The notes under the pieces: generated by a model | Databases searched by the model: none | Told to the model about the DNA's origin: nothing | Seen by the model: the letters and a program-made list of their open reading frames with translations, nothing else | Source of the DNA: Nitrospirota bacterium | GTDB lineage: Bacteria > Nitrospirota > Nitrospiria > 2-01-FULL-66-17 | Length of the DNA: 64,000 nt | Assembly: GCA_049325295.1 (NCBI GenBank) | Contig: JBMOMD010000043.1 | Coordinates: forward strand, 11,578 to 75,577 | Direction of reading: 5' to 3' | Position numbers and translations under genes: made by a program | Shown here: positions 16,081-64,000 of the stretch, in pieces | How the letters are laid out: each line of letters starts with the position of its first letter | How positions within the stretch are numbered: position 1 is the stretch's first letter

Positions 16081-16250
16081 GACGCAGAATTTGTCGTATA
16101 ACATCACTTAACCATCGCTTAATGGAAATCGAGAAAACTGTTGGATTGTTTAATTAATCTGTGGAATAATTCACCATCGTCCTGATCTTGTTAGGACGCA
16201 GTTCTTGCCGTAGTTGCTGAATTCATTAGGACGTCTAATTTTAGTTGGGC
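16076..16250 (+). other. attI-like region. Direct repeats GTTAGGACGCAG (16076-16087, 16190-16201), ATTAGGACGTCT (16225-16236), and core GTTGGGC (16244-16250) at the cassette junction. AT-rich, with a candidate Pc promoter TTGGAT-N17-GAATAAT (16141-16170).
   Basis: GTTRRRY-type integrase-binding half-sites are repeated downstream of the intI stop. Crossover G|TT lies at 16244/16245, where the cassette-1 ORF region begins. Confidence 0.5.
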
Positions 16251-48976: not shown

Positions 48977-49005
48977 TTGAACCTCAGGGAAGCCTGTGCT
49001 AGAAT
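48977..49005 (+). promoter_or_regulatory. Promoter TTGAAC-N17-TAGAAT (TGn extended -10)
   Basis: ~70 nt upstream of the ATG at 49076. An adjacent AACCATG-tcgg-CATGGTT palindrome overlaps the -35 region. Confidence 0.5.
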
Positions 49006-49075
49006 GCCGGGCCCGTTCACGGAGAAGGGCGGTCAGGTTCAGGTTCGCGGAATGACATCAAGACCGGAGGTATTC

Positions 49076-49453
49076 ATGGCAAAGCTGTCGGATGAGTCCA
49101 AGAAGAAGATCTCGGATTCGGTGAAGAAGTCGTGGGCCTTGCGACGCGCGCGGATGGCCAAGAAAGCGAAGGCCGTTCGGCGGTTATCGGCTGACGCGAA
49201 GCGGCGAATCTCGGAAGCGGTGAAACGTTCCTGGGCCTCTCGTCGCGCCGGCCGCGCCGCGTCATCGGCCGCCAAAGGCGGGGGCGTTTCGGCCTCGTCG
49301 GGGGTCTTGGCGTCGATCCGGCAAGCCTCGCGGTCGCTGCGCTCGCTCACGCTCGACGATCTTCGGCCGTTGGCGGGGCGGAAAGACGCGGCCGCCCACT
49401 TGGATGAGCTTGCCGGTCTGGTCTCTGACCTGCGACGGTTGATCGCGCGGTAA
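49076..49453 (+). CDS. Hypothetical basic protein with an internal tandem repeat (ISxxVKxSWAxRRA x2)
   Basis: RBS GGAGGT. Lys/Arg-rich. The upstream part of ORF 48977.. is rejected. Confidence 0.45.
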   Translation: MAKLSDESKKKISDSVKKSWALRRARMAKKAKAVRRLSADAKRRISEAVKRSWASRRAGRAASSAAKGGGVSASSGVLASIRQASRSLRSLTLDDLRPLAGRKDAAAHLDELAGLVSDLRRLIAR

Positions 49454-49751
49454 CCGTCAGGCTCCGCCAATTTTGTTCATTCGGTCGATCCGCCCGGTCT
49501 GTGCACGCGCACGGCCGGGCGGATGAGCTTTCCGGGCCGATACGCAGCCCGCCGAGGAATAAGTCGTCGCATCGGACGGTTGTACCCCACAGGAGGTTCG
49601 ATGCGCGATGAACCGACTGCTGCGATGGTGGGGCCGATCAGTCATTCAACTGAAAGTGTATTGGCTGTCGCTCGCCGAACAACGGTTGGAACGTCGCATT
49701 CTTGAGGAAAAAAAGCGGTATCCCTCCGGTTCTCCCTCGTCGGGAGAGTAA

Positions 49752-50234
49752 TTACCGCGCGGCGGTCGCGTCCGCGGGACCTTGCGTCGCCCACTGATCC
49801 CAGTCTGAACAATACGCCGGCGGGGCGAGCACCATGAGGATGTCTCCGTCCAGGAACCGCCAGTCCGGAGTAAACGGGTGGAGCGACTGCTCGCGCCGCA
49901 CCGCCACGCAGACCCCGGTGGGCGTTTCCATCGGTAGTGGGCGGTCGATCCATGGAGATCCTTGCGTGATCGCCACGTCGTGGATTTGCCAGCGTCCGTT
50001 CCCGACGATCTGGGAGAGTCGCCGCGCGGACATGGCCTCGCGCACGTCCCATGACGAGTTCGCCAGGCCGCGCGCGTGCTGATGGCGCAGCGCTTCATGA
50101 CCGCGGATCGCCCTCAGCCCGGCGTCGAGGTGCGGGGTTCGTTGTACCGAGATCCCGTCGACCAAGAGGGTGTACCCCTCGCGGCCCAATTCTCGGTACA
50201 GGTTGTCCACGCGTTCAGCCGAGATCGACGCCAT
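49752..50234 (-). CDS. Hypothetical protein, possibly an NYN/LabA-like nuclease domain (LLVDG ... DGD motifs)
   Basis: The ORF extends to 50366, but those first 44 codons lie in the AT-rich island and look non-native, so start M45 is preferred. Domain call is weak. Confidence 0.35.
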   Translation of the reverse strand: MASISAERVDNLYRELGREGYTLLVDGISVQRTPHLDAGLRAIRGHEALRHQHARGLANSSWDVREAMSARRLSQIVGNGRWQIHDVAITQGSPWIDRPLPMETPTGVCVAVRREQSLHPFTPDWRFLDGDILMVLAPPAYCSDWDQWATQGPADATAAR

Positions 50235-50333
50235 ACGTCGGTGCCGAAGTTGTGATCGGACCTGGGAAGCCGCATCCGCGACGTCCCAGAAGAAATCTCG
50301 GCAGGCTTGTCCAGCAATTGCGAGATCTCCAGC

Positions 50334-50446
50334 AATATCTGATGACAGTTTCTTAATATTTATCATTTATCTATATATATTTATATAATTATTCAGTTTT
50401 ACTTTATATGTGTCCGATAAGAGCTATTCTGTTAAATAATTAGGGC
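50334..50446. other. AT-rich island (~80% AT over ~113 bp) with reiterated ATTTAT/TATATA words
   Basis: Abrupt composition drop between the DUF4388 gene end and the next gene. Confidence 0.8.
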
Positions 50447-51640
50447 TCACCTGGTAGGACCGCTCGCCGTGACTTTCCCTGAAATCGGGTCATACGACCA
50501 CGGTTTCCCCCAAGGATCTTTGAGCGGCCACATCGATGCGCCGTACTCCGCCAACGGATCAAATACGGAGATGGGAGCCCGGCCGTGTTCAACGCTCCAG
50601 ACGTCCACCAGATCCCCCAACCCCTTGATGTGGTGACCGAGCATCATGACCCGCAGCGCGCGGACCTCCGCGTGGACCCCTTCGACGATCGCGGACCTCA
50701 TGCCCCACAGCGCCCACGTCGGAACCGCGATCAACGACGTCAGCAACGCCAAGTTTGCGATCCATCCCAACGCCACGGCGGCATGTCGCAACAACTCGGA
50801 GGGCACGCGTTCGGCGGCCACCACGGCGGACGGAGCCGGCGCATTCAGGGGAACAATGAGGCCGGCGCTTAGGAGGTTCGCCAACGCCTTACACACCTCG
50901 AATTCGCCGATCTGAAGCAATTCGATCAGTCGGGACACATCGTGCGAGCCGTTCAACGCGTGATAGACGGCGATCTCGTTCGCGGAGAATCGTCCTTCGG
51001 GCTCGTCCTGGCCGAGATCGGCGAATGGATCCGCCTCCGCCTCGTTGACCGCCGCCGCAACCGGAGTTTCCGGTTGGACAGCCTGTTCAATTTCTCCCCG
51101 TTTTTCCGGCACCTGGGCGAAGATGACTTTCAGCGAGGGGATCTTCTTCTCGATCGGCGGCCATTCATCGAGCCGCCGAACCCCCTCCATCAAGATGTGT
51201 TCGGTGCTGATCGGGTCAATATACTGTTTCGGGTACTGCACGTCGCGCTGTTCGAACGAGTAGCGTCCGTCCTTCCAGCGGAACAAGCGGTAGACCGTTT
51301 CCAAAATCTGAAGCCGCAACGCTTTTTTAAGGTCCGCTTCGCTGACGGCGTTCTGGGAAACAAGAATCTGTCCGAGATAGTCTCCGGTGTCCTGCTGCGT
51401 CTTCAGCGCCTTCTCGAGTTGTGGCGGAGAGATCCGCTTGGCGCGAACCAGCACTTCGCCGATGCGTTCGATCCCCTCGGCGTTGTCCATCTGCGCCGAT
51501 ACCACCATCCCCTTCACGAAACCGACGCTGGCTCGTCGCGCCCCGTCGAGAACGGACATCACGCCGCTCTTCTGTTGGACGTAGATGAGCTGGAAAATGT
51601 CCGACAGCCCGAAATCTTTAATGGCGCCTTCGAGCGACAT
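50447..51640 (-). CDS. DUF4388 domain plus GspE-N/MshEN-like domain protein with a C-terminal TM segment (candidate c-di-GMP binding)
   Basis: N-terminal LSDIFQLI...KSG pattern (DUF4388). Two repeats of the LGxxLVxxxxISxxQLxxAL MshEN-like motif. Confidence 0.6.
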   Translation of the reverse strand: MSLEGAIKDFGLSDIFQLIYVQQKSGVMSVLDGARRASVGFVKGMVVSAQMDNAEGIERIGEVLVRAKRISPPQLEKALKTQQDTGDYLGQILVSQNAVSEADLKKALRLQILETVYRLFRWKDGRYSFEQRDVQYPKQYIDPISTEHILMEGVRRLDEWPPIEKKIPSLKVIFAQVPEKRGEIEQAVQPETPVAAAVNEAEADPFADLGQDEPEGRFSANEIAVYHALNGSHDVSRLIELLQIGEFEVCKALANLLSAGLIVPLNAPAPSAVVAAERVPSELLRHAAVALGWIANLALLTSLIAVPTWALWGMRSAIVEGVHAEVRALRVMMLGHHIKGLGDLVDVWSVEHGRAPISVFDPLAEYGASMWPLKDPWGKPWSYDPISGKVTASGPTR

Positions 51641-51644
51641 GCCG

Positions 51645-53510
51645 CTACCGACGGTCGGGCAGCAACGACGAGCCTGCCGCCGACCAGCGCAAGGTCAACA
51701 GATGATACACGGCTATGAACCCCATCAAACAGATGCCGGCGGCGATGGGGCCCCAGGTGACGTACCACGGTGGCGGCACGAGTCTCGCCCCCACCGTATT
51801 CCACCCCACCTCCCGCAAGACGCCGACCCAGATGAGCCACGACCCCGCGAACGCCAACAGAGCGCCCCACACCGGATGCCCGATCGAGGCGTGTCCGGCT
51901 CCGGGAATCACCGCCAAGCAGGCCGCGAACCGACGGCGCGTCTCCCACCGGCGTAATGCCTGCGGGAGCGTGGACCGGGGCGTCACCTTGACGCCCTTGG
52001 CGTAGGATTTCCAGCACGTCGAGCACAACTTGAGGTCGAGAAAGTACCGCTGGCAGCGTCTGCAGACCGACGCTCCGCACGTTTCGCAGGGCGAGGCGGG
52101 TTGATTCGGAAACCACCGTCCCAACAGCCAACAGCCCACGAACAGGGTGAACACCCCGATGGCGACCGGCGTCGAGACGTGACGGCCCACCTCGGACAGC
52201 GCCGTCTGAATCTCCGGAGACGACGGCTGGGTGTGGAGCGCGTCTTTGAGGAGCTCGAAATGCGCCAACGGATAGTCGGCCACGGCGAGCGCGTCGTTGC
52301 GTTGAGCGCGCTCGCCGTACCAGTCGAGCAATCCGGCGTCGATGGCGCGGGCTTTCTGGTACTGCGCCTCGCCGTCCTCGAAGCGGAGGTCGGCTCGGTA
52401 CACTTGGCTCAGGTTATAGAGCACCGGAACCGAATTCGGGACCACCGCCCGCGCCTGTTCATAGAGGGATGCCGACTTCTTGTACTCCCCTCGACGGAAG
52501 AGGAGGTTGCCGTAGTCGGTCAGGAGGCGCGGGTCGTTCGGCCAGCGAATCAGCGCTTCTTCGAACAATGTGGCCGCCTCGTCCGGTCGCCCGGACATGG
52601 CGAGGGCCGAAGCGCGCGCCGCCGCGCCTCGCGCGGAATCGACGATCTCGGCGTCATCCAGCGCCCGAGACGGATCGCGTCCTTCCGCGACCTCGACCAC
52701 CAAGCGGAACTCGGTACTCTGATCAGCGGTCAATAACGGCATGGCGCGAGGAATAATCAGCGCCGCCGCCACCCCGACACCGGCCAGCGCCGTCAGCACG
52801 GCGCGTTCCCGTCTGGAGAGAAACCACCACAACACGACGCCGGGAACAAGAACGAACCACGCGCCCCACCGCACGGCGACGAGGGGCAGGACGACGACCC
52901 ACGCCGCCAAGAGCCCCGCCGTCGGCCTGAACAGTCGGTTTCCGCTCCATTCAACCAACAAATGCCCCAACAGCGGAACCACCCGCATCATGAACACCGC
53001 CATGACCAGGACCGCCGCCGACAACAAGGCGAGAACGGCCGCGGCCAACCATCGGTCGATCCGATAGAGCAGCGACCAAAAATCTTGGAAGGACGCTTTG
53101 AAGGCGGCGATCCATTCTTTGACGCCGGCTACGGCGTTGGGGTTCGGTCCCGAGAAATACACGTTTGCTTGCCACGCGTGCGGCGCCCAGAGTTTCGGAG
53201 ACAGGGCCGACGCGATGCGCGCGAGGTAGAGCGCGGCATCGGTTTCTCCCCGTTTGAGCAGGGCTTCCGCGTCGCGGAGGATGACGTAACTGAGTGATGG
53301 AAACTGATCGACGGTGCTCGCGCGCGCGGCATCGGACACGGCCCGCGCGGCGACCACGACGTCGCTGGAATCGGTCGCCGACGCGACCACGGCGCGGTAG
53401 GCATCCCAAGCGCCCAGGAGTTCAGGTGGGGGGGCGGCGAGGCCTCGGGATGGGGCCGCGCACGCCGCCAACAGCGCGAAGACGAAGACCGCGAGCGTTC
53501 TGGCCGTCAT
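51645..53510 (-). CDS. Polytopic membrane protein with TPR repeats and a CxxC-N12-CxxC zinc ribbon
   Basis: Signal/TM N-terminus. TPR-like AxxLxxxG repeats. CETCGASVCRRCQRYFLDLKLCSTC. ATGA overlap with the plsY stop. The track's upstream 198 codons are rejected. Confidence 0.6.
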   Translation of the reverse strand: MTARTLAVFVFALLAACAAPSRGLAAPPPELLGAWDAYRAVVASATDSSDVVVAARAVSDAARASTVDQFPSLSYVILRDAEALLKRGETDAALYLARIASALSPKLWAPHAWQANVYFSGPNPNAVAGVKEWIAAFKASFQDFWSLLYRIDRWLAAAVLALLSAAVLVMAVFMMRVVPLLGHLLVEWSGNRLFRPTAGLLAAWVVVLPLVAVRWGAWFVLVPGVVLWWFLSRRERAVLTALAGVGVAAALIIPRAMPLLTADQSTEFRLVVEVAEGRDPSRALDDAEIVDSARGAAARASALAMSGRPDEAATLFEEALIRWPNDPRLLTDYGNLLFRRGEYKKSASLYEQARAVVPNSVPVLYNLSQVYRADLRFEDGEAQYQKARAIDAGLLDWYGERAQRNDALAVADYPLAHFELLKDALHTQPSSPEIQTALSEVGRHVSTPVAIGVFTLFVGCWLLGRWFPNQPASPCETCGASVCRRCQRYFLDLKLCSTCWKSYAKGVKVTPRSTLPQALRRWETRRRFAACLAVIPGAGHASIGHPVWGALLAFAGSWLIWVGVLREVGWNTVGARLVPPPWYVTWGPIAAGICLMGFIAVYHLLTLRWSAAGSSLLPDRR

Positions 53511-54124
53511 CCCGCGCGACGCCCGATCGGCGATTCGGTTCCGCGCAGCAGGCGCCGGATATTGTCGTAATGACGAATGAGGATCGCCGCGGCGACGATC
53601 ACCGCGAAGACGTGAATCGACGGCCGTCCCGTCAGAAAAACGGCGATCGGCAGCGCGACGGCCGCCGTGATGCTGGCCAGCGACACATATCGGAATACCG
53701 CCAAGATGCCGCTCCACACCGCGAGAACCCCCAACGCGATCACCGGCGACAACGCCGCCAAGGCGCCGATGCCGGTGGCGACGCCCTTGCCGCCCCGAAA
53801 TCCCGTCCACACCGGAAACGTGTGTCCCAGCACCACCGCAATCCCGGAAATTTGCGCCCACAGTCCCGTGTGATCCGCAGTCAGGCTGAGGGCCGTCCAC
53901 ACCGCGACGAACCCTTTGCCGGCATCCAGTAGAAACGTCGCGGCCGCGGGACCTTTGCCCGCGACCCGCAATACGTTGGTGCTCCCGATGTTTCCGCTTC
54001 CCTTCGTCCTGGGATCGGCGGCGCCGACCCAGCGAGCGACCAACACGCCGAAAGGAATCGTGCCAAGCATATACGCGAACAACGTAATCGCCAAGCCGCT
54101 CCACGGGAATGCGCCCGACGTCAT
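53507..54124 (-). CDS. plsY: Glycerol-3-phosphate acyltransferase PlsY
   Basis: GSGNIGSTNVLR motif. ATGA overlap with pgsA. Confidence 0.85.
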   Translation of the reverse strand: MTSGAFPWSGLAITLFAYMLGTIPFGVLVARWVGAADPRTKGSGNIGSTNVLRVAGKGPAAATFLLDAGKGFVAVWTALSLTADHTGLWAQISGIAVVLGHTFPVWTGFRGGKGVATGIGALAALSPVIALGVLAVWSGILAVFRYVSLASITAAVALPIAVFLTGRPSIHVFAVIVAAAILIRHYDNIRRLLRGTESPIGRRAG

Positions 54125-62051: not shown

Positions 62052-63848
62052 TCAGTCGGTCACTTTCAGGAGCGCCAGGAAGGCTTCCTGAGGGATCTCG
62101 ACCCGGCCGACCTGCTTCATGCGTTTCTTGCCTTCCTTCTGTTTTTCCCATAATTTCCGTTTGCGGCTGATGTCGCCTCCATAACATTTCGCGGTCACGT
62201 TCTTCTTGAGCGCGCCGACCGTCTCGCGTGCGATCACGCGGCTGCCGATCGCGGCCTGAATCGCAATTTCAAACATCTGCCGCGGAATAAATTCCCGCAT
62301 CTTCTCCACCAGTTGGCGTCCTCGGGACGTGGCCTTGCTGCGGTGCGCGATGCAGGACAGGGCGTCCACCGTTTCTCCGTTCAATAAGATGTCCAGTTTG
62401 ATCAGATCGCTCGGTTCGTACCCGGTGACTTCGTAATCGAACGAGGCGTACCCACGGCTGATCGACTTGAGGCGGTCGTAGAAATCGAGAATCACTTCAT
62501 TGAGCGGCAGCCGATAGGTCAACATTAGGCGTTTGACGTCGAGGTACTTCATATCCAATTGCGTGCCGCGGCGCTCCTCGCAAAGCCGCAACAACGCGCC
62601 CAGATACTCCTCAGGCGTAATAATGGTCGCGCGGATCATCGGCTCTTCGAACGTGGCGATCTTCTGCACGTCCGGAAGCTTGGCCGGATTCTCGATGTGC
62701 AGGACCTCGCCCTTGAGAGTCGTCACCCGGTACACCACGGTGGGGGCAGTGCTGATCAACGCGAGGTGATACTCCCGTTCCAAACGCTCGCGGATGATCT
62801 CCATGTGCAGCAGGCCCAAGAATCCGCAGCGGAATCCGAATCCCAGTGCCAGCGAGGTTTCCGGCTCGAATGAAAACGATGAGTCGTTGAGCCGCAGCTT
62901 TTCCAGCGCGTCCCGCAGCGCCTCAAAGTCCGCACTGTCGACGCTGTAGAGCCCGCAGAACACCATGGGTTTGACGTCGGCGTACCCCGGGCACGGCTCG
63001 ATGGTCGGACGCGCCGCATCGGTCACCGTGTCGCCGATCTTGGTGTCCGCCACGTTCTTGATCCCGGCGACGATATACCCCACGTCACCCGCGGCTAACT
63101 CGTCGGTCGGTAGCCGCTTGGGCGTGAAGACGCCGACCGAGTCCACGATGTGGGCCTTGCCCGCGGCCATAAGGAGAATCTTGGTGCCGGCCCGGACGCG
63201 GCCGTCCATGACGCGCGCAAGGATGATTGCTCCTTGATAGTTGTCGAACCACGAATCCACGATCAGCGCTTTGAGCGGCGCCGCGGCATCGCCGCGCGGC
63301 GGCGGGATACGCCGTACGATCGTCTCCAGAATCTCCGAGATTCCAATGCCTTCTTTGGCGCTGGCCAAGATGGCTTCGGACGCATCGATGGCCAACACGT
63401 CTTCGATCTCCCGTTTCACCTTGTCCACGTCGGCGCTGGGTAAGTCGATCTTGTTGATCACGGGAATGATGGCGAGATTGCTGGCAAACGCGAGCTGCGC
63501 GTTGGCGATGGTTTGCGCTTCAACACCCTGGGTCGCGTCCACGATCAGGAGCGCGCCTTCGCAGGCGGCCAGGCTCCGCGAGACCTCATACGTGAAGTCC
63601 ACGTGCCCGGGAGTATCGATCAGGTTGAAGTCGTACGTTCGCCCGTCCGCGGCGCGGTATTGCAGGCGAACCGCGTGCGCTTTGATGGTGATTCCCCGCT
63701 CGCGCTCCAGGTCCATGTCATCCAAAACCTGTTCGCGCAATTCGCGGGCAGTCAGCGCTCCGGTTTGTTCGAGGAGCCGGTCCGCGAGCGTTGATTTCCC
63801 ATGATCGATATGGGCAATGATCGAAAAATTTCTGGTGGTTTCAAGCAA
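62052..63848 (-). CDS. lepA: Elongation factor 4 (LepA)
   Basis: [14 protein letters not shown] GTPase motif. 598 aa. TTG start. Confidence 0.93.
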
Positions 63849-63883
63849 CGGGATTCTGCGCGGCCGGATGAAAAAATCACCAG

Positions 63884-63912
63884 ATTATAGGAAGTTCAAT
63901 GCTCAAAGTCAA
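63884..63912 (-). promoter_or_regulatory. Consensus sigma-70 promoter TTGACT-N17-TATAAT on the minus strand, with an upstream T8 tract, for lepA
   Basis: Reverse complement of 63884-63912. TSS predicted ~30 nt upstream of the lepA start. Confidence 0.6.
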
Positions 63913-64000
63913 AAAAAACGGCCTCTCACGCGGAGCGTCTTGACAGCTATTGTTCGTCAGATATGCTGGATCTCACGCTGCGAGGGAGACGGATGAGCCC

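Follow-up and report, generated by a model that had tools for sequence, protein, structure and literature searches.

The DNA analysed here is a 64-kb stretch (hereafter, the window) from an uncultured Nitrospirota lineage. Within it, an envelope-lipid row of genes encoding a TPR protein, PlsY, a CDP-alcohol phosphatidyltransferase, a lipid A acyltransferase, a KdsC-like hydrolase and a SIS/CBS protein is closed by a DUF4388/PatA_N gene (50447-51640, minus strand; Pfam PF14332, E=1.8e-32). The gene that follows encodes a 204-aa protein (49752-50366, minus strand). Between the DUF4388 stop codon (TGA, 50449-50447) and the first codons of the 204-aa ORF lies DNA of extreme base composition, flanked by genes that all run on the minus strand. 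The initial annotation had described a 113-bp AT-rich island of ~20% GC in a 67% GC genome, located directly past the DUF4388 stop and ahead of the next minus-strand gene. The ORF coordinates bear out this placement and the island is real, with measured values of 22.1% GC for 50334-50446 and 64.8% for the window.

Composition and conservation of the AT-rich island

The island contains the lowest GC content in the 64 kb at window sizes of 40, 60, 80 and 113 bp. The mean GC content of 113-bp windows is 64.8% (sd 5.7%), and the best one (50331-50443) has 21.2%; inside the island, GC drops to only 5% over a core of 40 bp (50353-50392). The runner-up 113-bp window, at 16086-16198, has 35.4% GC; together with 63806-63918 (41%), it makes up the next lowest stretches, which are far milder than the island, and the 16-17 kb region overall falls to 53%. 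Reading from the DUF4388 stop toward the 204-aa gene, the island consists of 9 bp past the stop codon (50438-50446, 44% GC), a conserved 28-bp block that we identify below as a very probable dif site (50410-50437, plus strand, 36% GC), a 43-bp spacer that runs from this block to the start codon (50367-50409, minus strand, 9% GC), and the first 11 codons of the 204-aa ORF (50334-50366, minus strand, 21% GC; ATG at 50366-50364). AT richness thus peaks in the spacer, the AT core of the island, and not in the 28-bp block.

The junction was compared across nine species, namely that of the window and eight more (L002, L003/L004, L005, L006, L007/L008, L009, L012, and L024), and the succession of DUF4388 gene, spacer and 204-aa gene is kept in all nine. 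Gene order is likewise the same in 9/9 species (TPR gene, DUF4388 gene, 28-bp site, 204-aa gene), followed by pyruvate kinase where the contig reaches that far. At the same junction, the eight other species have a spacer of 42-44 bp with 18-30% GC. Because an independent Logan assembly (L001) carries an identical locus and the eight other species keep a comparable spacer, the island is not an assembly artefact. The earlier view that it is non-random and functionally constrained is upheld. The ATTTAT and TATATA words pointed out in the same annotation are present in the window, but they are peculiar to this species among the nine compared. When the locus was searched for by protein, genome contigs yielded nothing and metagenome contigs yielded one locus only.

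Several other features surround the island. Residues 59-111 of the DUF4388/PatA_N protein contain an MshE-type cyclic-di-GMP-binding motif (NCBIfam NF053729, E=5.6e-16), which suggests that the envelope gene cluster ends with a putative c-di-GMP receptor. The TPR-protein ORF (51645-54104, minus strand) is 819 aa long when read from a GTG, while gene callers on the identical contig report 621 aa (L001 696-2561); the upstream 198 codons, which overlap the plsY-like gene, are probably untranslated. A small, very basic protein with a repeated S-x-x-x-K-[KR]-x-W-A-x-R-R-A motif and a weak NUMOD3-like match is encoded at 48977-49453 on the plus strand; a strong GGAGG stands ahead of its gene, which is syntenic, with lengths of 125-158 aa, in all related contigs that are long enough. 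A perfect 10-bp GC-rich hairpin (ATCCGCCCGG-N17-CCGGGCGGAT, 49488-49524), located between the plus-strand basic-protein gene and the stretch that follows the minus-strand 204-aa gene, is probably a terminator. Finally, a 47-aa ORF without a family match (L001 4455-4598, minus strand, corresponding to approximately 49608-49751 on the plus strand of the window) lies on the strand opposite to the 204-aa gene, directly against its 3′ end, and is called in four species (L001, L005, L009, and L024).

A putative dif site and its replication-terminus signature

On the plus strand, positions 50410-50437 read GTGTCCGATAA-GAGCTA-TTCTGTTAAAT, which corresponds to the 11-6-11 layout of a 28-bp chromosomal dif site, with a XerC-type arm (50410-50420), a central hexamer (50421-50426), and a XerD-type arm (50427-50437). 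The dif site predicted for Koribacter versatilis, ATGTCCGATAACAGATATTATGTTAACT (Kono et al. 2011, PMC3025954, suppl. file 2), agrees with the window site at 23/28 positions (10/11 in the XerC arm, 9/11 in the XerD arm). For Thermodesulfovibrio yellowstonii, a Nitrospirae entry whose predicted dif is ATGTCTGATAATGTATATTATGTTAAAT (Kono et al. 2011, PMC3025954), the agreement is 21/28 (XerC arm 9/11, XerD arm 10/11). Published dif sites include those of B. subtilis (ACTTCCTAGAATATATATTATGTAAACT) and E. coli (GGTGCGCATAATGTATATTATGTTAAAT), and the E. coli XerD arm is matched at 10 of its 11 positions. A weight matrix built from nine published dif sequences only was used to score both strands of the window; 50410-50437 scored 22.9 bits and the next best site 5.5. 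The maximum over 200 shuffled windows was 15.0 bits, and shuffling the AT island 5000 times never reached 22.9 bits. The 28-bp block is single copy in the 64-kb window even when 3 mismatches are allowed, and single copy in each related locus with up to 7 mismatches.

The hallmarks of dif given by Carnoy & Roten 2009 (PMC2731167) are a position near the cumulative-skew peak, in non-coding DNA of low G+C content, and two inverted repeats that flank a variable hexamer and of which the XerC arm is the less conserved. The window site shares these properties. It is intergenic (between 50366 and 50447), has 36% GC as compared to 64.8% for the window, lies at a skew peak (see below), and has repeats around a hexamer. 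Kono et al. (PMC3025954) also ascribe to these authors the criterion of a single occurrence per chromosome; within the 64 kb available, the site occurs once. Read on the gene strand, the block follows the pattern ATTT[A/T]ACAGAA-TA[G/T][C/A][T/C]C-TTA[T/C]C[G/A]GAC.. in all nine species, with mean pairwise identities of 0.95 in the XerD arm, 0.84 in the centre, and 0.78 in the XerC arm. The better conservation of the XerD arm is as Carnoy & Roten 2009 (PMC2731167) give for dif. Identity in the flanks is ~0.40, which is near random.

The window site also differs from other chromosomal dif sites in some respects. The hexamer varies between species, as it does for dif in general, but the three variants found among the nine species (TAGCTC, TATCTC and TATACC on the gene strand; GAGCTA, GAGATA and GGTATA on the plus strand) all depart from the usual TGTATA. 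Palindromy of the inner arms is weaker than in E. coli (GATAA...TTCTG as compared to CATAA...TTATG) because TTC replaces TTA as the inner triplet of the XerD arm, a replacement that is also seen in the A. capsulatum prediction. Placement is unusual as well, in that the block begins 0-24 bp past the DUF4388 stop and is separated by a fixed 42-44 bp from the start codon of the 204-aa gene; in L007/L008, the DUF4388 stop (TAA) even lies inside the block and overlaps the outer XerD arm by 6 nt. In the window, the stop is 9 bp from the XerD arm. The dif-like sites difSL and difH, which are used by XerS and XerH, are also located at the terminus and are usually linked to the recombinase gene (Carnoy & Roten 2009, PMC2731167). 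In contrast, the genes adjacent to the window site do not encode tyrosine recombinases, and its arms resemble classical XerC and XerD arms. Those ORFs of the window that were scanned include no gene for a Xer or other tyrosine recombinase or for FtsK, a point against the dif reading.

A degenerate DNA pattern was scanned against the genomes of 185,579 species and gave 13 matches, where chance would give about 17. Of these, one from Nitrospirota (L012, which is syntenic) and four from Acidobacteria are the only ones to extend into the outer XerD arm. These five loci, L012 and the Terriglobales L010, L015, L019, and L020, share T[A/T]ACAGAATATCTCTTATC[G/A]GACATT, well beyond the pattern itself. 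The Terriglobales copies read ATGTC[C/T]GATAAGAGATATTCTGT[A/T][A/T]A and are located at L010 5819-5844 (minus strand), L015 7958-7983 (minus), L019 2636-2661 (plus; a closed 4.18-Mb chromosome), and L020 1828-1853 (minus). Each genome has one copy, the intergenic contexts are unrelated and partly convergent, and the L020 block faces the 3′ end of a gene. One copy per genome in unrelated contexts fits a site that occurs once per chromosome rather than a gene-specific operator, a sharply delimited 28-mer shared between phyla regardless of the neighbouring genes is how a dif site would appear, and the four blocks are probably the dif sites of these genomes. Local skew at the Acidobacterial sites gives no clear signal either way, which is expected since Kono et al. 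(PMC3025954) list low skew indices for this phylum. Similar blocks, GT[A/T]ACAGAATA.CTCTTAAC.GACA, were seen in two Candidatus Poribacteria MAGs (L013 795-820 and L016 300-325, both plus strand), directly followed by short tandem repeats (CAACCGA x4 in L013 and AACTGATAACCAATAAC in L016); these could be a divergent dif or chance matches. The remaining matches look like chance, and the only match in a viral contig falls in an apparent coding sequence and probably arose by chance too.

The surrounding base composition has the polarity of a replication terminus. Cumulative G-C on the plus strand climbs over the first 50 kb and then drops, with a maximum at 50172, only 238 bp from the dif site, this being a local peak within the 64-kb window and not one of the whole chromosome. 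GC skew changes from +0.044 left of dif to -0.038 right of it, an excursion as large as this was found in 0/5000 permutations of 1-kb blocks, and the positive-to-negative switch at dif is also present in L002, L003, L007, and L012. Gene orientation converges on the site, with 71% of coding bases on the plus strand to the left and ~82% on the minus strand to the right (from a crude gene map), and local skew is partly confounded by it. However, plus-strand skew computed from minus-strand genes alone still shifts from +0.001±0.012 on the left to -0.044±0.013 on the right, so the change is not merely a gene-strand effect. The FtsK-orienting motif GGGNAGGG was found 8 times pointing toward and 2 times pointing away in the left arm and not at all in the right arm, numbers too sparse to count. 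A skew maximum combined with converging genes indicates terminus polarity, the opposite of an origin. The GC-skew check that had been called for as a replication origin signal was decisive, but its maximum at 50172 marks a terminus and not an origin. Taken together, these observations argue that 50410-50437 is very probably the dif site of the chromosome, situated at its replication terminus. Elements of this type are well known, and this one comes from an uncultured Nitrospirota lineage. Xer binding and recombination at the site are predicted from its sequence.

The 204-aa gene and its start region

The 204-aa protein is restricted to a single clade, and its family comprises 9 clusters among 5.8 billion proteins, all from these Nitrospirota. 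The gene adjoins dif in every contig read, and no homologue away from dif was found in the database of 5.8 billion proteins. The protein has a helical N-terminal half and a weakly TrkA_C-like C-terminal half (Pfam TrkA_C, E=0.0019, below the curated cut-off), and its AlphaFold2 model has a mean pLDDT of 48. Seven homologues with 60-68% identity are all exactly 204 aa long, and an alignment of six homologues gives the N-terminal consensus MIxIAKLxSDIAGDxAIAGQSCREFFWD. Over the first 60 nt, identity among the nine species is 79% at codon positions 1+2 as compared to 51% at position 3. The initial annotation had held that the first 44 codons of this ORF fall inside the island and are probably not coding. 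Only the first 11 lie there, and the conserved N-terminus and the coding pattern of substitutions in nine species refute the notion that these codons are non-coding. The gene is also annotated too short at its 5′ end by NCBI in the genome of the window (160 aa from Met45, P0001), where the start may have been moved on account of the AT-rich first codons. In the related MAG L012 (5716-6336, minus strand), the product annotated by NCBI is 99 aa (P0009) and homologues indicate 204-206 aa.

Length and base composition of the spacer are both conserved across the nine species (42-44 bp, 9-30% GC). Its sequence is hardly so, with an identity of 0.40-0.42 as compared to 0.35 expected from composition. 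The sense strand contains 49% A, 30% T, 14% C, and 8% G, and A is at least as frequent as T in all nine species (pooled p=5e-5). This strand asymmetry argues that selection acts on the RNA and not on properties of the double helix such as curvature, melting or nucleoid-protein binding. The AT bias extends through the first dozen or so codons of the 204-aa gene. No Shine-Dalgarno motif precedes its ATG; many genes of the clade also lack an obvious one, while some neighbours have a clear GGAGG. In the operon upstream of dif, start codons lie only a few bases from the stop of the gene before, whereas the dif insert places the ATG of the 204-aa gene 64-83 nt from the stop that precedes it. The predicted folding energy from -30 to +30 has a mean of -4.6 kcal/mol in the nine species (range -7.4 to -2.2), as compared to -18.7 (range -29.4 to -8.0) for 29 neighbouring genes on these contigs, a difference that is an automatic consequence of AT richness.

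Structured RNA was also searched for at the island. Rfam gave no match at the gathering threshold for the window and six loci, and only chance-level matches (E>1) at a relaxed threshold for 49400-50700; conserved pairing potential was likewise absent, and a structured RNA is excluded on these grounds. A full-text literature search with the motif strings returned no papers.

The spacer and first codons most likely form an unstructured translation start region that operates without a Shine-Dalgarno sequence. They resemble the A/U-rich, SD-independent starts of leaders that depend on ribosomal protein S1 in being A-rich and G-poor, in lacking a Shine-Dalgarno motif, in being predicted to be unstructured, and in using AT-rich synonymous codons over the first dozen or so codons in a GC-rich genome. 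They are unusual in reaching 9% GC in a 65% GC genome and in their fixed distance to dif. A promoter within the 43 bp is possible. The window contains one weak minus-strand candidate, CGGACA-17-AATAAT (50416 to 50388), which overlaps the XerC arm. AT-rich hexamers occur in every species, but no promoter-like hexamers are conserved in position across the nine.

Competing readings and a model of the locus

Combining both parts, the island is in all likelihood a composite of a dif site at the terminus and the A/T-rich start region of the next gene. The strongest competing reading takes the whole island as an AT-rich, curved or UP-element sigma-70 promoter, in which the block would supply the -35 element and a gene-specific operator. 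The sequence TTAACA/TTTACA in the block does resemble a -35 hexamer, the window contains the minus-strand candidate described above, and -10-like hexamers located 7-14 nt ahead of the ATG in several species would yield a leaderless or short-leader mRNA. However, the candidate -10 hexamers vary in both sequence and position across the nine species, and the supposed spacer within the block is as conserved as the supposed hexamers. The block also recurs in Acidobacteria between unrelated and partly convergent genes, in one case (L020) facing the 3′ end of a gene, it matches published dif sites, and it sits at a skew switch. Its recurrence in unrelated contexts of another phylum excludes a gene-specific operator or an alternative-sigma promoter. 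We regard a promoter in place of dif as unlikely, while a promoter inside the 43-bp spacer is compatible with the dif explanation. Consensus sequences for other sigma factors and regulators were compared with the block by eye, and none (sigma-54, sigma-28, ECF, LexA, Fur, IHF, CtrA, or DnaA box) fitted it across species.

The AT spacer might instead be a nucleation or bending site for a nucleoid protein (H-NS, IHF or Fis-like) or an accessory sequence for Xer recombination, as found in the plasmid sites cer (ColE1) and psi (pSC101). Nucleoid-associated proteins do favour AT-rich DNA, and the spacer lies on the XerC-arm side of the Xer core, as do the accessory sequences of cer and psi. These accessory sequences span about 150-200 bp and contain specific sites for ArgR/PepA or ArcA, and chromosomal dif requires FtsK and not accessory sequences. 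The flank here is just 42-44 bp long (43 bp in the window) without conserved sequence, its AT bias runs straight on into the first codons of the 204-aa gene, its sense-strand asymmetry (A > T, C > G) points to selection at the RNA level, and the replicon is a chromosome with housekeeping genes. The Acidobacterial dif sites have no such extreme AT flank, which indicates that the spacer is not a general accessory of dif. A nucleoid-protein or accessory role for the spacer consequently appears very unlikely.

The initial annotation had also suggested a scar of foreign DNA, which could take the form of an attachment site left by an integrative mobile element exploiting Xer (IMEX), the end of a prophage, or a solo IS inverted repeat. 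Beyond the AT richness of the island in a GC-rich genome, this idea can draw on the fact that dif is an integration site for IMEX elements, which leave dif-like repeats behind. It is left unsupported by the syntenic locus, with the same gene order in nine species, by the lack of a second dif-like site in the window (the next best scoring 5.5 bits) or of an inverted partner with up to 7 mismatches in any locus, and by the chance-like nature of the only viral-contig match, and we consider it highly improbable. Owing to a resemblance of the block to the Tn5 mosaic end (TCTCTTAT...ACAT), an IS end and a sequencing adapter were also considered; both were rejected, the site being internal, syntenic in independent assemblies, and without an inverted partner. 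The DNA unwinding element or replication origin that had been proposed on the strength of extreme local AT content, here beside a switch in strand composition, is rejected as next to impossible, given that cumulative G-C is at a maximum and not a minimum, that genes converge on the site, that DnaA-box-like 9-mers (≤1 mismatch) number 2 in the window (17173 and 59822) as compared to 3.3 expected, with none within 9 kb of the island, and that neither dnaA nor dnaN was found among the ORFs scanned.

With dif and a start region as the preferred reading, the locus would work as follows. XerC would bind one 11-bp arm and XerD the other, with strand exchange taking place in the 6-bp centre. At cell division, FtsK-activated XerCD recombination between two dif copies would resolve a dimeric chromosome into monomers. 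The site would occupy the terminus, where the G excess of the leading strand and the orientation of genes switch sign, and there it appears wedged into a row of minus-strand genes, between the DUF4388 gene at the end of the envelope-lipid cluster and the clade-specific 204-aa gene. Because dif separates the 204-aa gene from the preceding stop, ribosomes would have to load de novo. An A/U-rich, G-poor stretch of mRNA would keep the start codon open in unstructured RNA and thereby let them do so in an otherwise 65% GC, highly structured transcriptome. We give this start-region mechanism about an even chance of being correct. Alternatively or in addition, a promoter within the same 43 bp may produce a leaderless or short-leader transcript. 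It is also conceivable, though very unlikely, that dif is functionally coupled to its neighbour, a coiled-coil/TrkA_C-like gene found only beside dif and at a fixed 42-44 bp from the XerC arm, with XerCD/FtsK occupancy gating read-through into or initiation of the 204-aa gene, or with the protein acting as a terminus- or Xer-associated factor. If true, such gating would tie expression of the 204-aa gene to dimer resolution and division.

The main uses of the result are as a genome landmark and for the correction of annotation. Two database annotations of the 204-aa gene, at 160 aa and 99 aa, are corrected to 204-206 aa. As a by-product, putative dif sequences are obtained for Terriglobales genomes. 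The locus also illustrates that DNA of extreme AT content in a GC-rich genome need not be a single element and can combine a recombination site with the region where translation of a gene starts. For this uncultured Nitrospirota lineage, the predicted dif would pin the replication terminus and the dimer-resolution site at single-base resolution, a landmark that may help to orient or close MAG scaffolds, define replichores, and spot mobile elements that exploit Xer.
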